DNA of 64,000 bases from Candidatus Gottesmanbacteria bacterium (GCA_963790805.1 CAWBPL010000002.1:320696-384695), one strand, 5' to 3'. Positions 5,136 to 51,831 are shown, numbered from the stretch's first letter. A program made the numbers and translations. Notes: generated by a model from the sequence alone, not told the origin.

Positions 5136-5420
5136 TTGCTATGTAATAAACACATTGAAAATTATTTACTTTTTTTCAATTCTTCATTGACCCACTTTAA
5201 TTTTTCCTCCAACATTTTCTTTTTCATTTCGAGATGTTCTTTGGACATCATATGCTCCTTACAGCAATCCATCATCATCCAATGTTCACCGTGACCAAAT
5301 TTTTTATCCATCATATGTTTCACCTCCCCTCAATTATTAAAGTATATATATTCTCTATAAGAAGAATAATGCATAAATCTGAAAATATGCTGAAGGAAAA
5401 TACATTTATTCCATCTTGAT

Positions 5421-35797: not shown

Positions 35798-36268
35798 TTA
35801 ATCGATAATTGGCAATGTGAAATGATTTTTTCGGTATTTAAGATAAAACCCGATACTTTCTCCGTGATCAAACGCAAGCTCGTGAAGCGGAAGAAGCTTA
35901 TCGATAGGAATCCATTCGACTTTCGATGATTCTTTATCACCCTCTCCGACTTTTTTCAGGGGGCGAATAAGAAAATCGAAGGCTACATTCTGACGATCCT
36001 CTTTCGGGCGATCTGGGCGCGTATTGATGCGAAAAAGGGAAATGATCTCCCCGACCCACCCCGTTTCTTCTTTGAGCTCCCGCAACATTCCCCGAGCCGC
36101 TGTCTCGTCACGCTCCAAAAAACCGCTCGGCAGTCCCCATTTACCGGCTTCCAACACATCCCCTGCACGTTTCTCTAAAAGAAGTGCCCCATCTCTCTCG
36201 ACGATTGCGTGAACCACAACATGCCGAAGGCTTGCATGTCCATCGTTTTCAAATGTACATGTTATCAT
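35798..36268 (-). CDS. NUDIX hydrolase
   Basis: Nudix box GKWGLPSGFLERDETAARGMLRELKEETG. Confidence 0.85.
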   Translation of the reverse strand: MITCTFENDGHASLRHVVVHAIVERDGALLLEKRAGDVLEAGKWGLPSGFLERDETAARGMLRELKEETGWVGEIISLFRINTRPDRPKEDRQNVAFDFLIRPLKKVGEGDKESSKVEWIPIDKLLPLHELAFDHGESIGFYLKYRKNHFTLPIID

Positions 36269-36459
36269 ACCGGATCCTTAAAACCGCATTTTGCATGTGA
36301 CCCGTCGCAAAACGGCTTGTTTTTTGACTGACCGCAACGACAAAGATGCATTTTTTCACCTGTAGACTCATGTATACCACCTTTTGCATCAATAACGGTA
36401 ATACCCGCATCAACTTCATACGGACCGTTGACCGTTGCTTTAATTGTTGGTTTGTTCAT
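36265..36459 (-). CDS. CDGSH iron-sulfur domain protein
   Basis: CRCGQSKNKPFCDGSH. I moved the start to MNKPTIK, which has GGAGG 5 nt upstream. Confidence 0.8.
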   Translation of the reverse strand: MNKPTIKATVNGPYEVDAGITVIDAKGGIHESTGEKMHLCRCGQSKNKPFCDGSHAKCGFKDPV

Positions 36460-36557
36460 ATATGCCTCCATAATTATTATAGACCATATTACGCTCATTC
36501 GAACGGGTTCTGCATCTGAGGTAAACACTGGTTGAATAATCGCATAATCACTGTATA

Positions 36558-36574
36558 TTTCAGCTATTTTTCAG
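36558..36574 (+). promoter_or_regulatory. TTTCAG-N5-TTTCAG direct repeat, site 1 (upstream of the RR gene)
   Basis: tttcagctatttttcag, with TATAAT (36584-36589) 9 nt downstream. Confidence 0.55.
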
Positions 36575-36597
36575 TTATTCATGTATAATACAAGGCT

Positions 36598-37272
36598 ATG
36601 AGAATCCTTGTCGTAGAAGACGAGCATAGAATTGCTCAATCAATCAAAAAAGGACTTGAACAGGAAAAGTATGCAGTGGATGTCGCCTATACAGGCACTG
36701 ACGGCTATGATCTTGCGTCTGCCGAAGAATATGATGTGATAATTCTCGACCTCATGCTTCCTGAGATGGACGGGTTAACCATGTGCAAAGAATTGCGAAA
36801 AAACAAAATTCACACACCCATTCTCATTTTGACGGCAAAGGGACAAATGGAAGATAAAGTTCATGGTCTGGATGCCGGAGCGGATGATTATCTCACAAAA
36901 CCGTTTTCTTTTGAGGAGATGCTCGCTCGAATCCGCGCGCTCTCACGAAGATCAAAAGATGCCTCAAATCCTGTTCTAACAGTTAATGACCTCACGCTCG
37001 ATCCAAAATCGTTCATCGTCACCCGTGCCGAGCAGCGAATTCTTCTTTCAAACAAAGAATTTTCGCTTCTGGAATTTCTGATGCGCAATGCGAATAAAAT
37101 TTGCACAAAAGATCAGATTATCGGACACGTATGGGATTATGAATCAAACATCCTTCCCAACACTGTGGAAGTATACATTCGAAACCTCCGAAACAAAATT
37201 GATCTTCCTTTTAAAAAAGAAAAACCGCTTATTAAAACTATACGGGGGTTCGGATATCAGATCGGACGCTAA
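36598..37272 (+). CDS. OmpR-family response regulator
   Basis: Receiver domain (ILVVEDE...DVIILDLMLPEMDG...LTAK) plus a winged-helix Trans_reg_C domain. Confidence 0.9.
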   Translation: MRILVVEDEHRIAQSIKKGLEQEKYAVDVAYTGTDGYDLASAEEYDVIILDLMLPEMDGLTMCKELRKNKIHTPILILTAKGQMEDKVHGLDAGADDYLTKPFSFEEMLARIRALSRRSKDASNPVLTVNDLTLDPKSFIVTRAEQRILLSNKEFSLLEFLMRNANKICTKDQIIGHVWDYESNILPNTVEVYIRNLRNKIDLPFKKEKPLIKTIRGFGYQIGR

Positions 37273-37275
37273 AAT

Positions 37276-38313
37276 ATGTTTCATTCAGCCCGCATAAAAC
37301 TCACTGCGTGGTATCTTGCTATCATCATGCTTATCAGCATTTCGTTCAGCGTGGTGATTTATCGCGTATTAACGAGTGAAGTTGATAGGCTCGCGACCAT
37401 TCAGCGGACGCGCATTGAGCGAAGGCTTCGCGAAGGCGGCGTACTGCCTGCTCCAACTATTCAAAATGCCCCTCCCCCGTTTCTTCTCAGCGATCCGGAT
37501 TTACTGGAGGAAACAAAACGTCGCGTTCTTTTAATACTTCTTGTCGTTGACTGCGGTATAACCGTGTTTGCGGGTGGTCTTGGATATTTTCTCGCCGGCC
37601 GGACATTGGAGCCGATTCAGGATATGCTCGATGAACAGAACAGATTTATTAGCGACGCATCGCACGAACTTCGTACCCCTCTCACATCGCTTAAAAGTGC
37701 GTTTGAAGTGTATCTTCGGGATAAACACCCCAAACCCACTGACGCCCACACCTTAGTAAAAGAAAGCGTTGATGAAGTGAATAAATTACAGGTATTATCC
37801 GAATCGCTTCTGGAACTTGCGCAATATCAAAAACCGGTTGGGGGCATGCTTATGGAAAAACTCATGCTCAATCAAATTGTAGATAAAGCGGTTCATCGCG
37901 TGGAACCGATGGCCCAGCAAAAAAAGATAACAATAAAAAAAGATATCCGGAATATCATACTAAACGGAAACATTCACGGGCTGTCTGATCTTCTTGTGAT
38001 TCTCTTGGATAACGCGATTAAATATAGTAACGACAAAACCAACATATATATAAAAGCTGTTAAAACAGATGGGCATGTTGAGTTGTCTGTTAAAGATCAG
38101 GGTATCGGAATCGCTTCCACAGATTTACCTCACATTTTTGACCGGTTTTATCGTGCTGACAGTGCACGAAGAAAAACGACTACGGGGGGGTATGGATTGG
38201 GTTTATCAATTGCAAAAAAAATAGTGAATACCCATAATGGAACTATACACGTAGAGAGTTCTATCGGAAAGGGTTCGACATTCATCGTACGTCTACCTAT
38301 ATCTTTCAGTTAA
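37276..38313 (+). CDS. sensor histidine kinase
   Basis: Two TM helices, the H-box FISDASHELRTPLT, and N, G1 and G2 boxes (DNAIKYS, DQGIGI, GGYGLGLSIA). Confidence 0.9.
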   Translation: MFHSARIKLTAWYLAIIMLISISFSVVIYRVLTSEVDRLATIQRTRIERRLREGGVLPAPTIQNAPPPFLLSDPDLLEETKRRVLLILLVVDCGITVFAGGLGYFLAGRTLEPIQDMLDEQNRFISDASHELRTPLTSLKSAFEVYLRDKHPKPTDAHTLVKESVDEVNKLQVLSESLLELAQYQKPVGGMLMEKLMLNQIVDKAVHRVEPMAQQKKITIKKDIRNIILNGNIHGLSDLLVILLDNAIKYSNDKTNIYIKAVKTDGHVELSVKDQGIGIASTDLPHIFDRFYRADSARRKTTTGGYGLGLSIAKKIVNTHNGTIHVESSIGKGSTFIVRLPISFS

Positions 38314-38320
38314 ATTTCAG
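38304..38320 (+). promoter_or_regulatory. TTTCAG-N5-TTTCAG direct repeat, site 2 (upstream of the efflux operon)
   Basis: tttcagttaaatttcag spans the HK stop codon, with TAAACT 10 nt downstream. Confidence 0.5.
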
Positions 38321-38346
38321 GTGGACTTTGTAAACTAGCTTGTTAT

Positions 38347-39690
38347 ATGAATATGTTTCAGAATTTATTGAAAAAACTTACTCCCGTAAAGGATAAATTT
38401 TTAAAGAGTTCGCTTCTTACCAGAATCATCATTCTTGCCGCGCTCGTTATCATTGTGGGATTTGGGGTTTTTAAACTTATTGCCGGTGGATCCTCACAAC
38501 CGCAATATCAGACGGGAACAGCGACTCGCGGAACGCTTATTACCACCGTTACCGCCTCAGGAAATATTTCAACCGGCGGTACCGTTAATATTACAACCGG
38601 CGCAACAGGTACTGTGACGCAACTGTATGTGAAAAACGGCGACAAAGTCACCCAGGGACAAAAAATTGCCGATGTCGCGCTTGACAGGGATTCCCAACAG
38701 AGACAAACGCAGGCATGGGCAAGCTATCTTTCTGCTCAAACCCAATTGAATAATGCGCAAACATCAATGTATAGTTTGCAGTCAACGATGTTTTCGCAAT
38801 GGCAAACATACACAAATATTGCGGAAAACTCCACCTACCAAAATCCGGACGGAAGCCCAAATACCAGTAACAGAACGCTGCCGCAATTTACAACAACGCA
38901 GGACAATTGGTTGGCAGCGGAAGCAAATTATCAAAATCAGCAAAACGCTATTGCGCAAGCGCAGGCGTCATTAACCAGCGCATATTATAATTATCAACTG
39001 CTCTCATCAACCATCACGGCACCAGCCGCTGGCACTATAAGCAACTTAGCGATAGCCCAAGGGTTGCCGATCAGTCCAACGACATCATCAGGTAATTCAA
39101 ATTCAGTGACTACTCAGGCAGTTGGCACCATCACGCTTCCCGAAGGCGGCGTTCAGGCAATTGTTGATTTAGCGGAAATTGACGCCGCTCAAGTAAAAAC
39201 CGGAGACAAAGCAACCTTAACCATGGCGGCATTCCCCAATCAGACATTCACAGGAAAAGTGCTCATTCTTAATACCAACGGCGCCGTGTCATCGGGAGTC
39301 ACCACATATCCGGCAACCATCGTTTTTGATACATCATTACCAAATATGTATCCCAACATGGCTGTCGACGCAGACATCATCACAAACGTTGAGGACAATG
39401 TTATTCTCGTACCGACTGCAGCTGTACAAACGACCAGCGGCTCATCAACCGTCCGAATATTGAAAAACGGACAGGTATCGACGGTTTCAGTACAAACAGG
39501 TGATTCGGATGATACGCAAACGGTCATAACCTCAGGTGTCAACGAGGGAGATGTTGTTGTCACCGGTGTCACTAATGCAAAAACCGCTGCAGCAACAACG
39601 AGTACCACATCGCCGTTTAGTGCTTTGGGTGGCCGAGGAGGAGGCTTTGGCGGAGGAGGCGCCGCCGCCGTACGAGTAACTGGCCGCTAA
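38347..39690 (+). CDS. efflux-pump periplasmic adaptor (MacA/HlyD family) with a Gly-rich tail
   Basis: N-terminal TM, lipoyl-like hairpin motifs (VKNGDKVTQGQKIA), a Q-rich coiled coil, a beta-barrel region and a C-terminal GGRGGGFGGGG. Confidence 0.8.
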   Translation: MNMFQNLLKKLTPVKDKFLKSSLLTRIIILAALVIIVGFGVFKLIAGGSSQPQYQTGTATRGTLITTVTASGNISTGGTVNITTGATGTVTQLYVKNGDKVTQGQKIADVALDRDSQQRQTQAWASYLSAQTQLNNAQTSMYSLQSTMFSQWQTYTNIAENSTYQNPDGSPNTSNRTLPQFTTTQDNWLAAEANYQNQQNAIAQAQASLTSAYYNYQLLSSTITAPAAGTISNLAIAQGLPISPTTSSGNSNSVTTQAVGTITLPEGGVQAIVDLAEIDAAQVKTGDKATLTMAAFPNQTFTGKVLILNTNGAVSSGVTTYPATIVFDTSLPNMYPNMAVDADIITNVEDNVILVPTAAVQTTSGSSTVRILKNGQVSTVSVQTGDSDDTQTVITSGVNEGDVVVTGVTNAKTAAATTSTTSPFSALGGRGGGFGGGGAAAVRVTGR

Positions 39691-39696
39691 AAGCAT

Positions 39697-40410
39697 ATGA
39701 AGAGCGATGTCATCATTGAAGCCAAACACCTCAAAAAAATCTACAAGATGGACACTGTTGAAACGGTAGCGCTTGATGATGTGTCATTTACGATAAAGAA
39801 AGGTGAGTTCGTCGCTATCATGGGTCCTTCAGGATCAGGCAAATCAACGCTTATGCACATTTTGGGAGCTCTCGATCTTCCCACCAGCGGCACGTATGTG
39901 CTTGACGGCGAAAATGTAGAGAACCTGACTGATGACGAACTTGCGGACATACGAAACAGAAAAATCGGATTTATTTTTCAGGCATTCAATCTCCTCCCGC
40001 GAACAACGACGATGAGTAACGTCATGTTGCCAATGATGTACGCCGGTATCCCGAAGGAAAAACGAATCGAAACAGCCAAAAAATTTCTTACTATGGTTGG
40101 ATTAGGAGACCGGCTTTATCACACATCCAATCAAATATCAGGAGGTCAACAACAGCGCGTCGCCATTGCGCGTGCACTCGTTTTAAACCCCGCGCTTCTT
40201 CTTGCCGATGAACCGACGGGCAATATTGCCACGACTCAGGCGGAAGAAGTCATGGCAATTTTTCAAAAACTCAATGAAGAAGGTCATACAATCGTTATGA
40301 TTACCCATGAGCCGGATATTGCGCAGCATGCAAAACGGATTATTCATGTCCGTGATGGAAAAATTATTGAAGACGGTTCAAATCATACACAAAGAAAAAT
40401 TAAACGGTAA
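39697..40410 (+). CDS. ABC transporter ATP-binding protein (MacB/LolD type)
   Basis: Walker A GPSGSGKST, signature SGGQQQR and Walker B LLLADEPTG. Confidence 0.9.
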   Translation: MKSDVIIEAKHLKKIYKMDTVETVALDDVSFTIKKGEFVAIMGPSGSGKSTLMHILGALDLPTSGTYVLDGENVENLTDDELADIRNRKIGFIFQAFNLLPRTTTMSNVMLPMMYAGIPKEKRIETAKKFLTMVGLGDRLYHTSNQISGGQQQRVAIARALVLNPALLLADEPTGNIATTQAEEVMAIFQKLNEEGHTIVMITHEPDIAQHAKRIIHVRDGKIIEDGSNHTQRKIKR

Positions 40411-40417
40411 AATAACT

Positions 40418-41641
40418 ATGGAAATTACAGAACTTGTCACGGAAAGTCTCGGAACACTTACACACAATAAGATGCGCTCAGGCCTTGCGATCTTAGGCAT
40501 CGTTATCGGTATCGGAAGCGTCATTGCGCTTCTGTCTCTTGGTGAAGCAACGCAACAATCGGTATCTAATCAAATCGAATCGTTAGGAGCTAATTTATTA
40601 ACCGTCAATCCTGGGGCCGCACAAACGGGCGCCGTGCGCGGTGCTGCAGGTGGCCGAACCACGCTGACACTCGATGACGCAAATGCCATTAAAACATCAC
40701 CGCAAATCACAACGATAAAAAATGTCTCCCCAGAATTCTCTAAAAGAACGCAGGTCACAACGGGAGAAAACAATACCAATACGTCAGTAATCGGCGTCGA
40801 TCCGGTTTATGCAGATGTTCACAAAATAACCATAGATTCAGGAACGTTTATCACTCAACGCAATGTAGACAGCCTCGGAAAAGAGGCAGTCGTTGGTCCG
40901 CAGGTCGTCAGCGACTTGTTCGGAAACGGGACGAATCCGATAGGTCAGACCATACGAATCAGCGGCAAAGCATTTACCATAGTCGGAGTAACGGTATCCA
41001 AAGGCGGAACCGGATTCATGAATCAGGATGATATCATTTTTGTTCCTCTAACAACGGCGATGTCACAGTTGTTCGGAGTAAAATATTTAACGTCAATTGC
41101 CCTTGAAGTAAAAAGTTCTGACCTTATGACCGCTGCGGAAAATGAAGTCGGGTATTTTCTACTTGCACGGCATAAAATCAGCGATCCGACGCAGGCGGAC
41201 TTTAGCATAGTTTCCCAACAGGATATTTTAAACACCGCCTCGGCTACCACCGGAACATTCACGGCATTACTATCAGGTATTGCTGCTATTTCCCTTCTCG
41301 TCGGAGGCATCGGCATTATGAATATCATGCTCGTAACCGTTACCGAGCGTACCCGCGAAATAGGACTTCGCAAGGCACTGGGAGCGAAAAAACAGACAAT
41401 TACGACGCAATTTCTGGCGGAATCCATCATGCTCACATTCACAGGTGGCGCAACTGGCGTCGTTTTAGGCATCATTGCGTCATTTATCATTTCAAAGCTC
41501 GTCAATTTCCCATTCACGATATCTCCCCCATCCATACTTCTTGCTGTTGTCGTCTCGGGAGCAATCGGCATCCTTTTCGGCTGGTACCCCGCCAAAAAAG
41601 CATCAGATTTACAACCCATCGAAGCGCTTCGGTATGAATAG
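40418..41641 (+). CDS. ABC transporter permease (MacB_PCD plus FtsX)
   Basis: I moved the start to MEITELV. It has a periplasmic domain between TM1 and TM2, and an FtsX C-terminus (TERTREIGLRKALGA). Confidence 0.85.
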   Translation: MEITELVTESLGTLTHNKMRSGLAILGIVIGIGSVIALLSLGEATQQSVSNQIESLGANLLTVNPGAAQTGAVRGAAGGRTTLTLDDANAIKTSPQITTIKNVSPEFSKRTQVTTGENNTNTSVIGVDPVYADVHKITIDSGTFITQRNVDSLGKEAVVGPQVVSDLFGNGTNPIGQTIRISGKAFTIVGVTVSKGGTGFMNQDDIIFVPLTTAMSQLFGVKYLTSIALEVKSSDLMTAAENEVGYFLLARHKISDPTQADFSIVSQQDILNTASATTGTFTALLSGIAAISLLVGGIGIMNIMLVTVTERTREIGLRKALGAKKQTITTQFLAESIMLTFTGGATGVVLGIIASFIISKLVNFPFTISPPSILLAVVVSGAIGILFGWYPAKKASDLQPIEALRYE

Positions 41642-42695
41642 TAAAATGTTTCTCGGTGCAGGTGTTGTTCTCGTTCTTATCGTCGTGATAGGCTGGTTTT
41701 ATATTTTCTCCCAAAAAAAACCGACAAATAATAATACCACTGCAACCGCCGTAAACTCTTCCAGTATCGATCCAACAAATAACAATCCCCTTTCCATTGC
41801 ACTCATGCGGAAAAAAACGTACCCCGGAAGCGACCTCACTATTGAGCAAACTTTATCACCCGGAAGTAATTACCAGCAATACATCGCATCGTATATGTCC
41901 GAAGGCCTTAAAATTTATGGGTTATTAACCGTTCCCAACGGCAACAAGCCTCAGGGCGGGTGGCCGGTTATTATATTCAATCACGGGTACATTCCGCCGG
42001 AGCAATATAGAACAACTGAGCGATACGTCGCCTATGTGGACGCTATTGCCAAAAACGGATATATCGTTTTTAAATCCGATTATCGGGGCAACGGAAATTC
42101 TCAAGGTCAACCGGAGGGAGCATACTACTCGCCTGCCTATGCCGCAGACGTCCTCAATGCGCTTTCCACGTTAAAGCGCTACAAAGATGCAAATCCCAAT
42201 AAAATAGGCATGTGGGGACACTCAATGGGAGGAAACATCACGCTGCGCGCTCTCGTCGTTGACCCGAAAGATATTAAAGTGGCTGTCATCTGGGGCGGCG
42301 TCGTGGGATCCTACGACGATTTGATGAATAATTGGCAACGGCGCGTACCGTATCAACCATCCGCACGCGAGCTGGCAAACAGAAATAATTACCGGCAAAA
42401 TCTGGTGACGACATATGGAACCCCCGCGGCGAACCCCAATTTTTGGAACGCCATCGATCCTACCGCTCATCTTATGGATATAACCGCACCGATACAACTT
42501 CACACCGGTGGCAACGACGAAGAAGTGCCGGTGGCGTTTTCCGTCAGTCTATATCAAAAACTCCAAGAGTCAGGAAAAATTGTTGAATACTACAACTACC
42601 CAGGCGGCGATCATAACATCGCTTCGCCAAATTTCGAACCCGCCATGGCTAGATCAATTGATTTTTTTAACAAATATTTGAAAGGGGGTGAATAG
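41634..42695 (+). CDS. secreted alpha/beta hydrolase (S9/dienelactone-hydrolase-like)
   Basis: Its start MNSKMFLG overlaps the permease stop. The nucleophile elbow is GHSMGG. Confidence 0.75.
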   Translation: MNSKMFLGAGVVLVLIVVIGWFYIFSQKKPTNNNTTATAVNSSSIDPTNNNPLSIALMRKKTYPGSDLTIEQTLSPGSNYQQYIASYMSEGLKIYGLLTVPNGNKPQGGWPVIIFNHGYIPPEQYRTTERYVAYVDAIAKNGYIVFKSDYRGNGNSQGQPEGAYYSPAYAADVLNALSTLKRYKDANPNKIGMWGHSMGGNITLRALVVDPKDIKVAVIWGGVVGSYDDLMNNWQRRVPYQPSARELANRNNYRQNLVTTYGTPAANPNFWNAIDPTAHLMDITAPIQLHTGGNDEEVPVAFSVSLYQKLQESGKIVEYYNYPGGDHNIASPNFEPAMARSIDFFNKYLKGGE

Positions 42696-42698
42696 CAA

Positions 42699-43145
42699 AT
42701 GAAAAATAATACTCTCATTATGGGAATACTTGTCATAGTTGTCGGAGTTGGAGCGTTTTTCGGTGGAATGCAGTATCAAAAAACCAAGTCTACGAGTCAA
42801 TTTGCCGCAGGGCAATTTGGAGGAGCAGGACTTCGGGGTGGAGCAGGTGGCGGCAGAACAGGTGGTACACGCCCGGTTGCCGGAGAAGTACTTAGCAGCG
42901 ACAACAATTCTGTCACCGTCAAACTTCAAGACGGGAGCAGCAAAATTGTTCTTGTATCAAGCTCAACCACCATTAACAAAGCCGATCAAGCGGCAATGAG
43001 CGATATAAAAACCGGTGAGCGCATTTCAGCATATGGACAGACAAATGCAGACGGAAGCGTTACCGCACAAAACATTCAGATTAATCCAATGTTTGGAGGA
43101 GGACCCGGCCGCGGAGCAAGTCCGACAGCCAGCCCAACGCAATAA
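42699..43145 (+). CDS. Gly-rich secreted protein (DUF5666-like)
   Basis: Signal anchor, a G-rich linker and a small beta domain. Confidence 0.5.
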   Translation: MKNNTLIMGILVIVVGVGAFFGGMQYQKTKSTSQFAAGQFGGAGLRGGAGGGRTGGTRPVAGEVLSSDNNSVTVKLQDGSSKIVLVSSSTTINKADQAAMSDIKTGERISAYGQTNADGSVTAQNIQINPMFGGGPGRGASPTASPTQ

Positions 43146-43170
43146 ACGATTGTTAGAAATTTCGTAAAAT

Positions 43171-43197
43171 ACCCCGCGTATGCGGGGTATTTTTTTA
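43171..43197 (+). terminator. intrinsic terminator ending the RR-HK-efflux operon
   Basis: ACCCCGC-gtat-GCGGGGT followed by ATTTTTTT. Confidence 0.8.
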
Positions 43198-43220
43198 TTT
43201 GAAACACGATCTGCCGGAAA

Positions 43221-44156
43221 TCATTTCTCTATCTTTTCAATCGGATAGTTTTCCTTACCGGCATGCAGACTCAAAATAAGTTCTCCCAACAATCCGGTCG
43301 AAAATAATTGAACGCCAAACAGCACGAGTAAGATTCCAAAAAAGAGAAGCGGACGCCTGCCAATTGATTGCCCGAGAAAATGAAGAAACGAAAGATAGAT
43401 TAAAAAAATAATTCCGATCACTGCAAAAACGGATCCGATTGATCCGAATAATTTGATGGGGCGCGTTTCAAATGATGAAATAAAAAGCGTCGTAATAATG
43501 TCAAAAAACGCATGGAAAACCCGCTCAGCTCCATATTTGGAGTCACCGAATTTTCGCGGATGATGAATTACGGGTACTTCCGTAATCCGAAATCCTCTTC
43601 TTGCAACTAAAAGCGGGATAAACCGGTGGAGCTCACCATATAAATGAATCTCCTCTATAACTTCTCGTTTAAATGCTTTGAGTCCGCAATTCATGTCATG
43701 TAAAGACACGCCGCTGGCGGTGGAAACAAAATTATTGAAAAAATGGGATACACGAATTTTACCCTTCGGATCTTTTCTCTCTTTCCTCCACCCGACGACC
43801 AAATCATATCCTTCATCGAGTTTTTCTATGAGCTTTGGAATTTCATTGGGATCATCCTGCAAGTCAGCATCCATCATGATGACTTTTTCTCCAGCGACAT
43901 GTTGAAAGCCGCATGCCAATGCCGCTGATTTCCCCATGTGTTTTCTGAATCGAATGAGTATCATGGGAGGGTGAAATTTTTCCTTTATTGCGATTAACGC
44001 ATCAAAAGACCTGTCAGTGCTCCCGTCATCAACGAAAATATATTCAAATATGTCATTTGTCTTTTTTGCCATCTCGTCAAGACTCTTTACTAATTCAGGA
44101 AGACTTTCTTTTTCGTTAAATACGGGAACGACAATACTTATAAGTGTTTTTTTCAT
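43221..44156 (-). CDS. family 2 glycosyltransferase (polyprenyl-phosphate sugar synthase, GtrB/ArnC-like)
   Basis: ISIVVPVFNE...VDDGSTD...MDADLQDDP plus two C-terminal TM helices. Confidence 0.85.
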   Translation of the reverse strand: MKKTLISIVVPVFNEKESLPELVKSLDEMAKKTNDIFEYIFVDDGSTDRSFDALIAIKEKFHPPMILIRFRKHMGKSAALACGFQHVAGEKVIMMDADLQDDPNEIPKLIEKLDEGYDLVVGWRKERKDPKGKIRVSHFFNNFVSTASGVSLHDMNCGLKAFKREVIEEIHLYGELHRFIPLLVARRGFRITEVPVIHHPRKFGDSKYGAERVFHAFFDIITTLFISSFETRPIKLFGSIGSVFAVIGIIFLIYLSFLHFLGQSIGRRPLLFFGILLVLFGVQLFSTGLLGELILSLHAGKENYPIEKIEK

Positions 44157-45646
44157 AAGCTCATCCGTTTAAAAGCATAAAAGTCACCCTGCTGGGCAAA
44201 TAGCTGGTATTGCTTATTATTTAACAAATTGTTCAGGGTCGAAAGCTGCGCATCGCCGCTTGGCCATGCGTACGGATCGCCCAAAAACACTATCGAATAA
44301 TCCGCTACCTCAGCGTCAATGGGGTAATTATACAAGAAACGCCTCTCGGAAAAATGAGCGCCAATATTATTGGTTACAGAAACAGTGTAACCTGAAGGAA
44401 TATTATTTGCTACCTGTTTCATAAGTTTCGTTTCCGACTGGGGCGTTGTGAAATAATTGAATCGCGAATCTTTCTCGAGCGGTAACTCTCCCCACGCATA
44501 CGAAAACGCCACGGTAAAGAGAAGTACAAACACAACCATGAGAGGTCTCGCCTTAAATTTTTTTATATGGAATCGGCCAATATAATATTCCGCAGTTCGA
44601 TACCCTTCTATAGCGGCTACAAAAAGAAAAGGCATAATGACACTATCGTATTGATAATCAATTTGTCTCATAAGCGGATCATTGCTTAGGACGTTAATAA
44701 GTAACGTCGGACCGGCAAATATCAGATAGAGCGGAGACAACAAAGGTAGAAATCCCAGCGGAACAAGCAACTGAAAATAATAATATAGTCTGTCGGGAGA
44801 CATAATTAAACGGAGGTCAGTCATCGGTTTCGTGAGTATATTTTTGAGAATATCATTTTGTCGATCCCCAAACTCTGAAAGATATATAAAAGCAAAATGC
44901 TGTTTCGTTGGAGTAACCGCTGGGATTGCTTTCCAAAAAAGAATATAAAATATCAAAAATGCCAAGACTGCTACCATCGCTCCAAACAAACGTTTCTTTT
45001 TAAGAAAAACAATATACAATCCCATAAGACCGGCAACTAACCAAACATGCTCTTTTCCAAGTGCCGCCAGAACAACAAATAGTAAAAAGCGGGTATACTT
45101 TTCTTTGTACATATACCAATACGCAAATAAAAGAAGTGTTATTGATAAGACCTCTGCATGAAAATCATGAAGCATCTTACGCTCCAGCGACGGATATAAA
45201 AGATATGCTCCGGCAAACAACAGCGCAAGTTTTTTCGATTTTAATCTATCAAGCGCTATCCAATATACGGGAAGGGCACCCAGCGCAGTCACAACAGTTT
45301 GAACGACAAGAAGCATTTTGGGATTTGACCAGATAAGATACAGAGGCGCCATCAGGATTAATAGAAAATCTGCGTGGACAGCAAGCCTGGACTCCTGACT
45401 GACCCCCATCGGATCTGTAAGGGTAAATCCATATCCGTGTGCCACGTTCCACACCGTTTGATCCATGTTACCAAGATCTAAGCGCCGGGAATAAAAATTG
45501 TCATGGCGGGAGAAACTGACAAACGTAAAATATCCAATAAACAATATAATAATACAATAAAGAATGTGACGCGGGCTTATATGCCAGTTTTTCAATGAAA
45601 TATGTGACATAATATGTTCTATATATTTCAACACCACAATACGCAT
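44153..45646 (-). CDS. polytopic membrane protein, GT-C-like (DUF2079-like) glycosyltransferase candidate
   Basis: At least 10 predicted TM helices. It overlaps the GT2 gene by 4 nt. The family call is tentative. Confidence 0.55.
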   Translation of the reverse strand: MRIVVLKYIEHIMSHISLKNWHISPRHILYCIIILFIGYFTFVSFSRHDNFYSRRLDLGNMDQTVWNVAHGYGFTLTDPMGVSQESRLAVHADFLLILMAPLYLIWSNPKMLLVVQTVVTALGALPVYWIALDRLKSKKLALLFAGAYLLYPSLERKMLHDFHAEVLSITLLLFAYWYMYKEKYTRFLLFVVLAALGKEHVWLVAGLMGLYIVFLKKKRLFGAMVAVLAFLIFYILFWKAIPAVTPTKQHFAFIYLSEFGDRQNDILKNILTKPMTDLRLIMSPDRLYYYFQLLVPLGFLPLLSPLYLIFAGPTLLINVLSNDPLMRQIDYQYDSVIMPFLFVAAIEGYRTAEYYIGRFHIKKFKARPLMVVFVLLFTVAFSYAWGELPLEKDSRFNYFTTPQSETKLMKQVANNIPSGYTVSVTNNIGAHFSERRFLYNYPIDAEVADYSIVFLGDPYAWPSGDAQLSTLNNLLNNKQYQLFAQQGDFYAFKRMSL

Positions 45647-45693
45647 GGCACAAACTTCTATCCAATACGCCCAAACCAGTTTATCGATCCTCG

Positions 45694-45710
45694 CTGAAAA
45701 TTATCTGAAT
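45694..45710 (-). promoter_or_regulatory. ATTCAG-N5-TTTCAG direct repeat, site 4 (upstream of the DUF2079-GT2 operon)
   Basis: The minus strand reads attcagataattttcag, with GATAAA 8 nt downstream. Confidence 0.45.
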
Positions 45711-45781
45711 TTTAGCAATATACCGAGTATTGTGCTTTTTTCCAAATAATTCTTCAGGTATAGTAAATACAATACATCAAT

Positions 45782-46489
45782 ATGTCCAGCTTTTTTTCAA
45801 ACAAAAAAATTCGCCGGCTCATGACTGGCCTCGCTATTATAATCACTCTTGCCGTATTAATATATATTATCGTTCAAGGGAGACATTATTTCTCCCGTCG
45901 CGGCATCATACGGCTCCAATCCTTTATCACCCCCTATGGATCGTTCTCACCGCTTGTAATAGTACTTCTTATTGTATTAAGCACAGTTATTCCCCCGCTC
46001 CCTTTACCGATTCCACTGATTGAAATGGCAGCGGGTTTGATGTTTGGATTTTGGCAGGGATGTCTCTTAGTATGGTTTTCCCAAATACTTTCATCGATTC
46101 TTGCATTCGGAATCACACGATTTATTGGAAAGCGGTTATTTAATAAATTTCTTAATAACCATTTTTTGTTGTTGTATCAACGGTATATTCATAAAAAAGG
46201 ACCACTCGCAATCTTTATCACCCGTGCAACGATGTCCGCACCGTTTAATATTGTGAGCTTCTTGGCGGGGTTAACGCAAATGAGCACACTCAGTTTCTCC
46301 ACTGCGACAACGCTCGGTACCATTCCAGAATCACTTCTTTACCCTTTTATCGGAAGCATTATTCGACACGTGCGGTTGAAGCTTTGGTATATATTTATTA
46401 TTGTCGTTATTTTAGGAGCGGTAGGACCCATATTTACGTATTTTATGATAAAAAGATTAGAGCCTACTCCAGCGAAACATAAAAAATAA
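45782..46489 (+). CDS. TVP38/TMEM64 (DedA-related) family membrane protein
   Basis: Typical length and TM pattern. The FITRATMSAPFNIVSFLAGLT segment resembles the SNARE_assoc motif. Confidence 0.75.
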   Translation: MSSFFSNKKIRRLMTGLAIIITLAVLIYIIVQGRHYFSRRGIIRLQSFITPYGSFSPLVIVLLIVLSTVIPPLPLPIPLIEMAAGLMFGFWQGCLLVWFSQILSSILAFGITRFIGKRLFNKFLNNHFLLLYQRYIHKKGPLAIFITRATMSAPFNIVSFLAGLTQMSTLSFSTATTLGTIPESLLYPFIGSIIRHVRLKLWYIFIIVVILGAVGPIFTYFMIKRLEPTPAKHKK

Positions 46490-46520
46490 TGCAAACGAGA
46501 AGGTTCTATATTCACGTATT

Positions 46521-46537
46521 TTTCAGCTAATTTTCAG
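46521..46537 (+). promoter_or_regulatory. TTTCAG-N5-TTTCAG direct repeat, site 3 (upstream of the flavin module)
   Basis: tttcagctaattttcag, with TATAAA 8 nt downstream. Confidence 0.55.
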
Positions 46538-46562
46538 AAAAGTGATATAAATTAGCCTAACT

Positions 46563-47027
46563 ATGAAAAAATTCTTTTTATCTTCTTTTGTCGTCATAAC
46601 CTTTATCGCCTACGCGCTCTATCAGCGTTTAAGCAACACTGATACTACACAGCCACTGTCACCCGTAACGACAACGAATACATCCCAACCATCAAATACC
46701 ATAGCCCCCATCCAACAGGCATCAGGCAACCCGCCAACAAATAGCGGCTTCAAAGACGGTCAATTTACGGGTGACGTCGTTGATGCATTTTATGGAAACG
46801 TACAGGTAAAAGCGACAATTCAGGGAGGAAAAATCACCAGCGTGCAATTTTTGGACTATCCGCAGGATCGCCGTACGTCTCAAATGATAAATAGCCAGGC
46901 GATGCCGGCTCTCATATCGGAAACCATACAGGCACAGAGCGCAAATGTTGATATTGTTTCAGGTGCGACACAAACAAGTTTAGCGTTTCGCCAATCGCTT
47001 TCCTCGGCTCTCAGTAAAGCAAAATAA
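46563..47027 (+). CDS. extracytosolic FMN-binding domain protein (ApbE substrate type)
   Basis: Signal anchor plus the flavinylation motif D-I-V-S-G-A-T-Q-T-S. Confidence 0.75.
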   Translation: MKKFFLSSFVVITFIAYALYQRLSNTDTTQPLSPVTTTNTSQPSNTIAPIQQASGNPPTNSGFKDGQFTGDVVDAFYGNVQVKATIQGGKITSVQFLDYPQDRRTSQMINSQAMPALISETIQAQSANVDIVSGATQTSLAFRQSLSSALSKAK

Positions 47028-47032
47028 TTTAT

Positions 47033-47770
47033 ATGAAACAGACACGACTTATGATGGATATGCCGATAACAGTCGATGTTGTTGATCCAATTGCAGGTGA
47101 CATTTTCAACGAAGTCTTTGACTATTTTACCTATATCGATAACACATTCAGTGTGTACAAAGAAAACAGCGAAATAACGAAGATTAATAAAAGAAAACTC
47201 AAACAAACAGAATACAGCCCTGACATGAAAGAAGTATTTGCTCTTTGCCAGAAGACAACGGATCAAACGAACGGCTATTTCGATATACAAAGAAATGGAA
47301 TATTTGATCCATCAGGTTTGGTCAAAGGCTGGGCTATCTGGAATGCCGCAACAATCCTCAAAAAAGGGGGGGCCATGAATTTCTACGTTGATGCAGGCGG
47401 TGATATACAAGTTTCGGGTACAAATGCTAAACACAAAAAATGGGAAATTGGAATCAGAAACCCCTTTAACACAAAAGAAATCGTAAAAATTGTATTAATT
47501 GAAGACAAGGGAGTCGCAACATCGGGAACGTATGAACGGGGTCTTCATATTTATGACCCTCACAATAATCAAAAACCAGTTACAGATATTGTCAGTCTGA
47601 CGGTTGTCGGTCCGGATGTGTATGAGGCGGACAGATTTGCAACTGCAGCATTTGCCATGGGCCGCAAAGGTATAGCGTTTATAGGGACTTTAAAAGGATT
47701 TGAAGGATATATGATAGACACAAAAGGTATAGCAACGTATACAAAAGGTTTTCATACATACATCAAATAA
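47033..47770 (+). CDS. apbE: FAD:protein FMN transferase
   Basis: ApbE-family motifs (FDPSGLVKGWA, VDAGGDI, GVATSGTYERG). Confidence 0.9.
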   Translation: MKQTRLMMDMPITVDVVDPIAGDIFNEVFDYFTYIDNTFSVYKENSEITKINKRKLKQTEYSPDMKEVFALCQKTTDQTNGYFDIQRNGIFDPSGLVKGWAIWNAATILKKGGAMNFYVDAGGDIQVSGTNAKHKKWEIGIRNPFNTKEIVKIVLIEDKGVATSGTYERGLHIYDPHNNQKPVTDIVSLTVVGPDVYEADRFATAAFAMGRKGIAFIGTLKGFEGYMIDTKGIATYTKGFHTYIK

Positions 47771-47775
47771 TCAAT

Positions 47776-49293
47776 ATGAAATTTATAGATAATTTTTTAA
47801 ATACTATAACGATGTATCGGCTTGTACTTTACGTGCTCATTAGCATTGTGGGCATCGCCACGCTTTTTGCATTTTTGGGTCTTCTACCGTTTAGCGGATT
47901 TGCGCTTCTTTTTTCTACCGCATTTTTATTATTTATCGGTTGGATCACAAATGCATTATTTGCTTCTGTCTTTTCAATACCCGCCAACGAGGAATCCGTC
48001 TACATATCGGCGCTCATTTTAGCTCTCATTATTTCTCCCATTACATCGTTTGGAGACTTACCTTTCCTGTTTTGGGCCGCTGTGTGGACCATGGCATCAA
48101 AATTTATCGTAGCCGCTTACAAAAAGCACGTGTTTAATCCGGTGGCATTCGCTGTTTTTTTAACCTCCATAACGATCAGCAAATCCGCAACGTGGTGGAT
48201 CGGCACTTCGAGCCTTTTACCGTTTGTCGTCATCGGAGGTTATTTGATAGCAAAAAAAATCCGGAGACTCGATTTAGTCGTAACATTTCTCGCTGCCTCG
48301 TTTATCACAATCGCTGGAATAAGTCTTGCGAATGGAACGAGCGTTCTCACGACTTTCCAAAAAACGCTTTTGGACACACCGTGGATATTTTTTGCGACGG
48401 TTATGCTCACTGAACCGCTGACAACCCCGCCAACAAAAACACTGCGTCTTCTCTATGGCGCACTCGTTGGGTTTCTTTTTGCACCTCAAATTCATCTTGG
48501 ATCACTCTATACCACACCCGAAAGCGCACTCCTCCTTGGAAATATATTCTCGTATATAGTAAGTCCGAAGGAAAAATTACTGCTAACGCTCAAAGAAAAA
48601 ATACGCATAGCGCCCAACATATATGATTTTGTTTTCAATTTAAAAAAGCCGATTTCTTTTAGACCCGGGCAATATATGGAATGGACGTTTGGCCATCCGA
48701 ATGCCGATAAACGCGGTAACAGACGGTATTTTACCCTCGCCTCTTCTCCAACGGAATTGACTATGCGTATTGGTGTTCGGTTTTATGACAAACCCAGCAG
48801 CTTTAAACAGTCACTTTTAGCTATGACTTCGACAACACCGATACTTGCCGGACAACTTGCGGGTGATTTTGTTCTTCCAAACGATCCAAAACAAAAAATT
48901 GTATTTATCGCAGGAGGCATCGGTGTAACACCCTACCGAAGCATGGTGAAATACCTTCTCGATACACACCAGTCACGGTCCATTATCCTACTGTATGCAA
49001 ATAAGACCGTCGATGAAATCGTCTACACAGACGTTTTTGAAGCAGCAAAAAAAACATTCGGCATGAAAACGGTGTATACCCTGACGGATAAAGATCGCGT
49101 CCCGCCCAACTGGTCCGGCTCCGTCGGACGGATAGATCCCAACAAAATTCAAACGGAAATCCCCGATTATAAAGAACGGATCTTTTATATATCGGGGCCC
49201 AATGCGCTCGTTACTTCTTTTGAAGAATTGTTGCGTTCAATGGGAATACCGCCTCAACAGATCAAAACTGATTTCTTTCCCGGCTTCGCATAA
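47776..49293 (+). CDS. fusion of an RnfD/NqrB-like membrane domain with an FNR-type FAD/NAD(P)-binding reductase
   Basis: The N-terminal 230 or so aa are polytopic (KHVFNPVAF). The C-terminus has RRYFTLAS (the RxYS FAD motif) and GGIGVTP (the NAD motif). Confidence 0.75.
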   Translation: MKFIDNFLNTITMYRLVLYVLISIVGIATLFAFLGLLPFSGFALLFSTAFLLFIGWITNALFASVFSIPANEESVYISALILALIISPITSFGDLPFLFWAAVWTMASKFIVAAYKKHVFNPVAFAVFLTSITISKSATWWIGTSSLLPFVVIGGYLIAKKIRRLDLVVTFLAASFITIAGISLANGTSVLTTFQKTLLDTPWIFFATVMLTEPLTTPPTKTLRLLYGALVGFLFAPQIHLGSLYTTPESALLLGNIFSYIVSPKEKLLLTLKEKIRIAPNIYDFVFNLKKPISFRPGQYMEWTFGHPNADKRGNRRYFTLASSPTELTMRIGVRFYDKPSSFKQSLLAMTSTTPILAGQLAGDFVLPNDPKQKIVFIAGGIGVTPYRSMVKYLLDTHQSRSIILLYANKTVDEIVYTDVFEAAKKTFGMKTVYTLTDKDRVPPNWSGSVGRIDPNKIQTEIPDYKERIFYISGPNALVTSFEELLRSMGIPPQQIKTDFFPGFA

Positions 49294-49556
49294 ACATGCG
49301 AAACATAATTTTTGCTTCTTATTTTTAAGCCTACTTTCAGGTTTGTACCCTATTCTCTATATGAAAGGAGGAAAGCCAATGATACATAACAGGTTTATGG
49401 TTTTAGGCTAAAAAGCAGATATGTTTCGTAGGTAAACACAATAAAACCAAGAACCTGAGTGATAAAAAGACAATTACATAAGGACCTCACGTATGTTTTG
49501 GGCGGGTTTAAGACGAGAGGTCGGTAGTTCCCAATCTACCAAATACAATTAAATAA

Positions 49557-49584
49557 CAGCGCCCGTTGACGCGTGGCGCTGTTT
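49557..49584 (+). terminator. hairpin, possible terminator
   Basis: CAGCGCC-N11-GGCGCTG followed by TTT. The U-tract is weak. Confidence 0.4.
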
Positions 49585-51006: not shown

Positions 51007-51831
51007 TTATATATGAATTTTTTCCCGCCGCCTCATAAACAAAAAATATATCACTGCTATATAAACTATCATGATACCCAATCGCACGCCGCTAAATCCC
51101 TGATCTAAGCCGAACAAACCCTGAAGGATATGGCCAATAAAACTGTCCTCTCCAGGTAAGAATTGAAGATGAAACGACAACATGCCGGAAAGCGATATAC
51201 CAAAATGTGTTTGAAGCAACTTCGTAATACCGTTCTGGACAAGAGAAGCCCCTAATAGAATAATCATGTATTCGGTCACTTTAAATACCTTTCCTATTGG
51301 AAACCGGATGTACGCCACAAATGTTGCAAGCCCCAATATGGATGCGCCGGCAAATCCGATCATAAGTCCGATAAAATTCTGCATAAATGCCGAGAAGAGT
51401 GAAACACTGGCGGTAAATAACGCTACCTCAAATCCTTCCCGAATAACCAAAAATACAATCGTGAAAAAAAGGGATACATCGAACGCGTTCTGTCGTAGCT
51501 TCTGATGCGCCCGAATAAGACTGTCGCCTCTGCTTTTCCGAAGGACCGTATGAAGGGAAAACACGACATAAGCAATAAAGAGTCCAGAAAAGATAAGAAG
51601 ATAGCTTTCCAAAAAATCTGCATTTTTCTCCGTTAATATACCCCGAGCGTAACTCCCAAAAACATACGTACCGGTGGCCATCAATAAGGATATAAGAATT
51701 CCAAGCGATGCCGCCAGCTCGATCTCCGGTTCTTTCTTTAGGTTCAATTTTCTTGAAACTCCTAAGAATACTCCAACAATAAGAAATGCTTCCAAAAACT
51801 CCCGAAAAGCGATCACAGCTGTGGTAAACAT
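51007..51831 (-). CDS. FTR1/EfeU-family iron permease
   Basis: Two RExxE motifs (REFLEA and REGFEV) in TM helices. Confidence 0.85.
   Translation of the reverse strand: MFTTAVIAFREFLEAFLIVGVFLGVSRKLNLKKEPEIELAASLGILISLLMATGTYVFGSYARGILTEKNADFLESYLLIFSGLFIAYVVFSLHTVLRKSRGDSLIRAHQKLRQNAFDVSLFFTIVFLVIREGFEVALFTASVSLFSAFMQNFIGLMIGFAGASILGLATFVAYIRFPIGKVFKVTEYMIILLGASLVQNGITKLLQTHFGISLSGMLSFHLQFLPGEDSFIGHILQGLFGLDQGFSGVRLGIMIVYIAVIYFLFMRRREKIHI

Follow-up and report, generated by a model that had tools for sequence, protein, structure and literature searches.

The 64,000-nucleotide stretch of a Candidatus Gottesmanbacteria genome considered here (GCA_963790805.1, CAWBPL010000002.1:320696-384695; hereafter the window) encodes a two-component system (TCS), composed of an OmpR/PhoB-family response regulator (RR) and a histidine kinase (HK), followed on the same strand by the operon of a MacA/MacB-type exporter. 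Direct repeats of the hexamer TTTCAG, or close variants of it, lie in front of the RR gene, of the pump operon and of four other units (Table 1). An earlier, sequence-only reading of the window had put forward four of these repeats as a candidate regulon of the local OmpR-type TCS, a proposal that phylogenetic footprinting now supports. The sites occur in statistical excess, belong to promoters of fixed geometry and are conserved at orthologous positions in other species. With good confidence, we regard them as the operator of the adjacent RR, which would drive six transcription units by class II activation.

Table 1. Repeat sites, genes and other features of the window, and loci of a secreted-protein family in relatives (L-numbers). 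Scores of sites are those of the position weight matrix described in the text.
Feature	Coordinates	Strand	Description
Response regulator (RR)	36598-37272	+	OmpR/PhoB family; Pfam Response_reg 115 bits, winged-helix Trans_reg_C 84.8 bits
Histidine kinase (HK)	37276-38313	+	HisKA and HATPase_c; 2 transmembrane (TM) helices, short variable loop
Site 1	36558-36575	+	TTTCAGCTATTTTTCAG(T); exact match at 36558-36574; upstream of RR-HK operon; 22.7 bits; -10 TATAAT 36584-36589, 9-nt spacing; ATG 8 nt past -10
Site 2	38304-38321	+	TTTCAGTTAAATTTCAG(G); exact match at 38304-38320; 18.9 bits; -10 TAAACT 38331-38336, 10-nt spacing; ATG 10 nt past -10
Site 3	46510-46538	+	ATTCAC-N5-TTTCAG-N5-TTTCAG; exact match at 46521-46537; 22.2 bits, upstream register 11.9; -10 TATAAA 46546-46551 or TAAATT 46548-46553; ATG 46563
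Site 4	45693-45710	-	ATTCAGATAATTTTCAG(C); one-mismatch match at 45694-45710; 21.4 bits; -10 TAAACT 45683-45678, 10-nt spacing; leadered mRNA, 31 nt to ATG 45646
Site 5	49324-49341	+	TTTAAGCCTACTTTCAG(G); one-mismatch match at 49324-49340; 18.0 bits; -10 TATTCT 49351-49356, 10-nt spacing
Site 6	5379-5395	-	CTTCAGCATATTTTCAG; one-mismatch match; 19.3 bits; -10 TATTCT 5368-5363, 10-nt spacing; leader ~48 nt, Shine-Dalgarno GGGGAGG
Pump operon	38347-43145	+	HlyD/MacA-like adaptor 38347-39690; ABC ATPase 39697-40410; MacB-type permease open reading frame (ORF) 40307-41641; alpha/beta hydrolase of S9/S15 type, ORF 41475-42695; Gly-rich DUF5666 protein 42699-43145
Intrinsic terminator	43166-43193		Strong, bidirectional; 12-bp stem, 6 GC pairs, T-run
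DUF2079-GT2 operon	43221-45646	-	DUF2079 membrane protein 44153-45646; GT2 glycosyltransferase 43221-44156
FMN_bind operon	46563-49293	+	FMN_bind 46563-47027; ApbE flavin transferase 47033-47770; membrane RnfD-like plus FNR-type NAD-binding reductase 47776-49293
Candidate regulator-dependent transcript, ~220 nt	49362-49582	+	Starts UGAAAGGAGGA; ends with hairpin CAGCGCC...GGCGCUG and UUU
50-aa Cys/His/Met-rich protein	5162-5314	-	MMDKKFGHGEHWMMMDCCKEH..., then C-terminal helix MSKEHLEMKKKMLEEKLKWVNEEL; invariant DCCxEH; N-terminus Cys/His/Met-rich
Secreted-protein loci of relatives	L004 15509-16000; L011 5486-6188; L015 16195-16780; L017 2270-2782		Motif upstream

The pattern TTTCAG-N5-TTTCAG occurs exactly three times in the window (sites 1 to 3), against 0.04 occurrences expected, and none of 100 dinucleotide-preserving shuffles reached that number. 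When one mismatch is permitted, the count rises to six against 0.63 expected from shuffles, the additional matches being sites 4, 5 and 6. An 18-nt position weight matrix (PWM), built on the repeats found upstream of the RR gene across genomes of the Candidate Phyla Radiation (CPR, or Patescibacteria), returns six matches of at least 18 bits in the window; at a threshold of 15 bits there are still six, against 0.4 expected from shuffles. The period of 11 bp is present in all six sites. Site 2 covers the final 10 nt of the kinase gene, stop codon included, and therefore marks an internal promoter, and at site 3 a third, weaker half-site (ATTCAC, 46510-46515) stands in register 5' of the pair. 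The site sequences quoted in the sequence-only reading were all found correct, as were its gene assignments (RR, HK, HlyD/ABC/MacB, hydrolase, Gly-rich DUF5666, DUF2079, GT2, FMN_bind, ApbE and RnfD-like with NAD_binding), and its paired repeats correspond to three exact copies and to the minus-strand site 4 with one mismatch. That reading had found no other pair in the window and missed sites 5 and 6, and the six sites are not confined to the single 13-kb block in which it had placed its four. Regarding the -10 element of site 4, the letters that it gave (GATAAA) are right, but TAAACT, with its 10-nt spacing, is the better choice.

The promoters in which the repeats are embedded share a narrow geometry. 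Across 54 sites, each -10 element matches TATAAT at four or more of its six positions, and 43 of the repeats end 9-10 nt short of the -10 (range, 7-11). In 45 of the 54, only 6-11 nt separate the -10 from the start codon, leaving no space for a leader or a Shine-Dalgarno sequence, and most target mRNAs are thus predicted to be leaderless; leadered mRNAs are expected from site 4, site 6 and a few sites in front of DUF5666 genes. No -35-like hexamer was found at the proper distance (site 1 was inspected by hand), and a scan with the sigma-70 consensus (-35/-10) called none of the six window promoters. The repeats themselves cover positions -38 to -22 of each promoter. In pho-box promoters, the tandem dimer of PhoB takes up the place at which the -35 would otherwise be contacted by sigma region 4. 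The geometry that had been likened to that of class II OmpR/PhoB activators is thereby upheld: tandem half-sites 11 bp apart, 9-10 nt to the -10 and no -35. The idea that leaderless starts are peculiar to the regulon was rejected, as gene counts in the window point to a genome-wide habit. A strong TATAAT-like -10 lies 6-11 nt before the start codon in 21 of 61 window genes compared with 4% of all ATGs, and a Shine-Dalgarno-like sequence precedes about 15 of the 61. Examples of leaderless starts are those at 4108-, 6519-, 9443+, 29645+, 35780-, 45782+ and 49670+.

Relatives were gathered by a search with the RR protein, keeping one genome per species, and yielded orthologues of 57-78% identity in 38 CPR genomes; distant OmpR homologues of other phyla served as controls. 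The CPR set carries the labels Gottesman-, Roizman-, Shapiro- and Amesbacteria, Saccharibacteria, Parcubacteria and Berkelbacteria, and the L-numbers used below designate the genome loci or metagenome contigs of relatives used for comparison. The window itself comes from a small CPR genome, probably of the Microgenomates type. A check for relatives that keep the TCS while their orthologous promoters lack the motif found NNNCAG-N5-NNNCAG conserved 38-43 nt upstream of the RR ATG in 35 of 39 CPR genomes with the window included (34 of 38 without it); of the four exceptions, two do carry a site, but farther 5'. This footprint spans Microgenomates, Saccharibacteria-like and Parcubacteria-labelled metagenome-assembled genomes, the half-site reading TTTCAGC in Microgenomates-type genomes and (T/C)TCAG in Saccharibacteria-like ones. 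The consensus in relatives is TTTCAGC-N4-TTTCAGC, with a period of 11 nt. PWM matches number 71 in 639 kb of CPR loci versus 5 in 474 kb of non-CPR loci (1.1 versus 0.1 per 10 kb). A TAnnnT element lies 8-11 nt downstream of 84% of all 88 PWM matches, compared with 7.8% of random positions, and of 23 of the 24 exact copies of TTTCAG-N5-TTTCAG found in ~1.05 Mb of the relatives' CPR loci.

Conservation extends to the other three operons of the earlier proposal. The repeat is found upstream of HlyD/MacA orthologues in at least 18 species; the loci concerned include L001-L005, L007, L009, L013-L016 and L040, where matches that took no part in training the PWM lie 28-53 nt 5' of the ATG, as well as L036, L112 and L113. 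A site precedes FMN_bind in at least seven loci (L001, L002, L075, L083, L084, L110 and L111), with a variant in L081/L091; L075, L083, L084 and L081/L091 came from a metagenome scan with the RnfD-FNR protein. In L110, the FMN_bind promoter even has the same upstream third half-site as the window at 46510. Among contigs encoding DUF2079 homologues, three carry the site at the DUF2079 promoter (L110, L111 and L112). Sites also occur before DUF5666 in L007, L009, L010 and L014, and before the hydrolase gene in L015. All four sites noted at the outset are conserved at orthologous promoters of other species, the RR and pump sites forming a universal core and the other targets varying with lineage. 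The order RR-HK, MacA-ABC-MacB-(hydrolase)-DUF5666 is kept in at least 14 genomes, and in several the TCS, the pump, DUF2079-GT2 and FMN_bind/ApbE/RnfD-FNR form a single island. Genes for the FTR1 iron permease and for NicO, cupin and cupredoxin proteins lie in or beside this island, L110-L112 having HxlR in addition (e.g., L112 3686-14227), and L112 encodes a fusion of DUF5666 with a cupredoxin/copper-binding domain.

The protein that reads the repeat is very probably the adjacent RR, as suggested by the near-universal presence of the motif at its own gene, by the different repeat of a paralogous system and by a recognition helix resembling that of Mycobacterium tuberculosis (Mtb) PhoP. The paralogous TCS, whose RR is 52% identical, occurs in L069-L071, convergent to an FMN_bind/RnfD-FNR cluster. 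Its own gene is preceded by TCCTCAT-N4-TTCTCAT (L069 5400-5460(-)), 10 nt from a TATAAT that itself lies 6 nt from the ATG, and its recognition helix (NIVETYIKYLRKK) differs at several positions from that of the window RR (NTVEVYIRNLRNK). The latter aligns with the helix of Mtb PhoP (NVVESYVSYLRRK), its Asn and Glu matching Asn212 and Glu215. The PDB entries nearest to the RR are DrrD and, second-best, Mtb PhoP (E = 1e-44). PhoP recognizes TCACAGC, a 7-bp motif in direct repeat whose 4-bp spacing is strict, and it holds arrays of three or four motifs more tightly (PMC4832192).

In the mechanism that we propose, the HK would phosphorylate the RR, probably on D51, which we infer to be the phospho-acceptor. 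Phosphorylated RR would then occupy a pair of 7-bp half-sites (TTTCAGC) placed 11 bp apart, its dimer lying in tandem, head to tail. Because the sites end 9-10 bp upstream of TAnnnT at promoters devoid of a -35, the bound dimer would take the -35 position and recruit RNA polymerase, i.e., class II activation as practiced by PhoB at pho boxes. Six units would be controlled in this manner: the RR-HK operon itself, by positive autoregulation; the pump operon (MacA/MacB-type exporter, hydrolase and DUF5666), driven from the internal promoter of site 2; the DUF2079-GT2 pair, for envelope glycosylation; the extracytoplasmic flavoprotein operon FMN_bind/ApbE/RnfD-FNR, with its three half-sites; the gene for a 50-aa Cys/His/Met-rich protein; and a short transcript without a conserved ORF.

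Binding by the adjacent RR, and activation rather than repression, are what we infer from these features. For activation the ground is the promoter architecture alone, and sites that overlap the -35 could in principle repress. The RR might thus bind but act by occluding RNA polymerase, as a repressor or in both roles, its targets being de-repressed when it is unphosphorylated; OmpR-family proteins are able to repress from -35-overlapping positions such as the -38 to -22 interval occupied here. Yet these promoters have no recognizable -35 hexamer, which other promoters of the window sometimes have, and the fixed 9-10 nt to the -10, together with the head-to-tail orientation towards the gene, match activator-dependent pho-box promoters. 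The presence of the site at the RR's own gene in 35 of 39 genomes fits positive feedback, though autorepression, too, can act through such sites. We consider repression unlikely and retain activation by the adjacent RR.

Still less probable, to the point of being a marginal option, is that the recognizer is another transcription factor, or an alternative sigma factor using TTTCAG as an upstream promoter element. Binding by the RR is a prediction from sequence alone, and a gene for an extracytoplasmic function (ECF)-type sigma factor precedes the small-protein gene in one relative, L098. This very locus lacks the motif, however, and promoters of alternative sigma factors are not built from a direct repeat of 11-bp period followed by a canonical -10 resembling TATAAT. 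Moreover, the motif tracks the RR orthologue, its frequency in CPR loci being roughly ten times that around distant OmpR homologues; in 35 of 39 genomes it stands upstream of the gene of this RR, and the paralogous RR has a distinct repeat of its own. That the sites are chance matches, or a duplicated promoter cassette without regulatory role, is effectively refuted: the genome is AT-rich (~40% GC) and T-rich hexamers are common in it, but the shuffle controls speak against chance, spacers and flanks differ among the sites, which are therefore not recent duplications, and the motif holds its orthologous positions in species whose proteins have diverged to 40-78% identity, with the above-mentioned excess of correctly spaced -10 elements.

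Several points weigh against the regulon as proposed, i.e., the adjacent RR activating six units. The scan of the source genome covered the 64-kb window out of ~1.22 Mb. The training sites of the PWM were picked by a regular expression demanding [CA]AG, so that PWM scores at these sites are circular, a flaw that touches neither the sites outside the training set nor the exact-pattern test. Conservation at non-core targets is patchy: about half of the metagenome FMN_bind loci have no site, DUF2079 lacks it in L007 and L113, and the gene for the 50-aa protein occurs without the motif in L096-L098 and L106. Saccharibacteria-like genomes show a clear site only at the RR's own gene, and no convincing sites were found at the genes past the kinase (FtsX/ABC; LytR-CpsA-Psr with DoxX; quinol oxidase), so no regulon is claimed in this clade beyond autoregulation. 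The support as a whole is comparative and drawn from sequences. It nonetheless amounts to a well-supported regulon prediction for an RR conserved across much of the CPR.

Among the predicted targets, the pump combines HlyD_D23, ABC_tran (121 bits), MacB_PCD (152 bits) and FtsX (81 bits) Pfam domains. MacA and MacB are its best named NCBIfam matches, below the equivalog cut-offs, and the pump is therefore called MacAB-like at the level of domain homology. The longest ORFs of the MacB permease and of the hydrolase extend back into the genes before them, by 104 and 167 nt (40307-40410 and 41475-41641), and their true starts probably lie further downstream. The terminator behind DUF5666 serves the pump operon and, from the other side, the convergent GT2 gene. 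For DUF2079, the public annotation of an identical protein (P0081, 100% identity, 485 aa) starts at 45610, 12 codons past the first ATG; with two possible starts, the leader of the site-4 mRNA would be 31 or 67 nt long. None of the targets proved to be a pst, pho or phn gene. Two neighbors complete the picture of the locus, namely a CDGSH iron-sulfur protein gene divergent from the RR gene (36265-36528(-)) and an FTR1 gene at 51007-51831(-).

Site 5 precedes no conserved ORF. The same layout is found directly after the RnfD-FNR stop codon in L001 (20345-20535) and L002 (13832-13995), where the repeat, the 5' end and the hairpin are kept and the reading frames are not. The window transcript folds better than shuffled controls (z-score, -3.9), the MAFFT alignment of the three homologous regions is too poor to support a covariation analysis, and an Rfam search of the region gave no credible match. 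The UGAAAGGAGG of this start recurs in L004 as the Shine-Dalgarno sequence of a secreted-protein gene. As UGAAAGGAGG serves a real gene there, the site 5 element (49362-49582) may be a small RNA or the stump of a lost gene; tblastn and blastn searches of the region for a remnant of the secreted-protein gene detected none. The secreted family in question, of ~165 aa and with a His/Gly/Met-rich C-terminal tail, has no Pfam domain, lies near the TCS and has the motif upstream in several relatives (Table 1); no homologue was found in the window.

The 50-aa protein behind site 6 is one of an unannotated but well-conserved family, with 66-92% identity over at least 80 clusters. Pfam and NCBIfam assign it to no family, with only DUF5320 appearing below threshold. 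The motif recurs upstream of its homologues in three to four other lineages (L102, L108/L109 and L099/L101). A tblastn search with this protein against the relatives' loci found nothing, and in those relatives the gene is therefore not linked to the TCS locus. The protein looks metal- or redox-active. In some relatives, genes of this family adjoin cupredoxin and Crp genes.

As for the signal, no PAS or HAMP domain was detected in the HK. Its first TM helix and juxtamembrane segment (MFxSARLKLTAWYLLIIM...EVxRFA; window 37276-37640 and orthologues) are far better conserved than its extracytoplasmic loop, which ranges from ~10 to 55 residues across orthologues and is nearly missing in L016 and L036. 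This contrast suggests that sensing occurs in the membrane or through a partner protein. The window loop (~53 aa) is devoid of His, Cys and Met, and the HK looks more like an intramembrane-type sensor than like a CusS-type metal sensor. Judged by its members, the regulon would answer to stress on the envelope, to metal-redox stress at the cell surface or to both, and our reading is that of a cell-surface stress response, directed to metal/redox or antimicrobial challenge; to a specifically metal-related signal we give at best an even chance.

Patescibacteria are mostly uncultured and have very few regulators. Full-text literature searches returned no description of this CPR TCS, of its motif, of its targets or of leaderless CPR promoters, and no mapped regulon for Patescibacteria was found in the literature searched. 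Tentatively, and with considerable doubt, the system might represent an ancestral, CPR-wide surface-stress circuit with an undescribed regulon (exporter, glycosylation, flavin reductase, small-protein family and noncoding RNA), mediating a response to metal/redox conditions or to host contact that is peculiar to ultra-small epibionts. If the regulon prediction is true, the operator code of the circuit is TTTCAGC-N4-TTTCAGC, read from leaderless, -35-less promoters. The conserved operator supplies a PWM with which thousands of CPR genomes can be searched for the genes that these bacteria regulate, and a defined pair of DNA probe and protein for cultivation-free binding assays. DUF5666, DUF2079, the 50-aa Cys/His/Met-rich protein and FMN_bind/ApbE/RnfD-FNR would be linked functionally through a single response. 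The mechanism itself is that of an ordinary, classical OmpR/PhoB operator; the prediction is therefore of value for annotation and for its testability, not as a new principle.

The pho box bound by PhoB consists of 7-bp direct repeats (CTGTCAT) with a 4-bp spacer, ~10 bp upstream of the -10 and in place of the -35. The promoters described here resemble it in their two 7-bp repeats, their 11-bp period, the replacement of the -35 and the positive autoregulation of the regulator's own operon, which here is a prediction. They differ from it in the half-site (TTTCAGC versus CTGTCAT), in the absence of phosphate genes and in the mostly leaderless mRNAs; the RR scores 200.4 bits against a cut-off of 296.2 for the PhoB equivalog. 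With no pst, pho or phn among the targets either, assignment to PhoB and the Pho regulon was rejected. Mtb PhoP (PDB 5ED4) has a similar helix and 7-bp half-sites that also end in CAGC and are separated by 4 bp, and its tighter binding to arrays of three motifs has a counterpart in the three half-sites of the window at 46510-46537. The two half-sites differ over their first three bases, kinase and regulon are unrelated, and the match is one of distant homology and not of orthology.

The best-scoring NCBIfam families for the RR are those of the heavy-metal regulators (CusRS/CopRS/SilRS/CzcRS) and of cyanobacterial RppA(NrsR)/RppB. These heavy-metal systems share with the present one a TCS located beside an efflux system with a CusB/CzcB-like membrane-fusion protein, and a metal flavor is lent here by the Cys/His/Met-rich protein, the cupredoxin fusions, FTR1 and NicO. 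All scores nevertheless remain under the cut-offs (RR versus heavy-metal subfamily TIGR01387, 242.9 against 279.2 bits; RR versus RppA, 239 against 250; HK versus heavy-metal kinase TIGR01386, 147.3 against 292.55), the kinase loop has no metal ligands among His, Met and Cys, and the pump is a MacB-type ABC transporter, not one of the RND type. Membership in a heavy-metal sensor family was therefore rejected, metal being kept as a possible theme, and by the curated cut-offs the RR is not a member of the PhoB, CusR/CopR or RppA families.

A Bce-type module (BceRS-BceAB) was rejected as well, since the permease is of the MacB type (MacB_PCD and FtsX) and has a separate HlyD adaptor; of the features expected of such modules, only the kinase, with its variable loop of ~10-55 aa, is partly reminiscent. 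What the system has in common with HssRS-HrtAB and HitRS of Firmicutes and with Bce-type modules is an OmpR-type RR and a small membrane kinase encoded beside an ABC transporter of the MacB superfamily, while it departs from them by its separate HlyD-type adaptor (YknX/MacA-like), the lack of a BceB-type permease with 10 TM helices and its broader regulon. Sensing via the membrane or the transporter, as in HssRS- or Bce-type modules, is plausible by analogy. In HssRS-HrtAB and HitRS, the transporter promoter carries a specificity-determining direct repeat (PMC3968170), and it is these TCSs, located beside MacB-superfamily exporters, that come closest in logic to the circuit described here.

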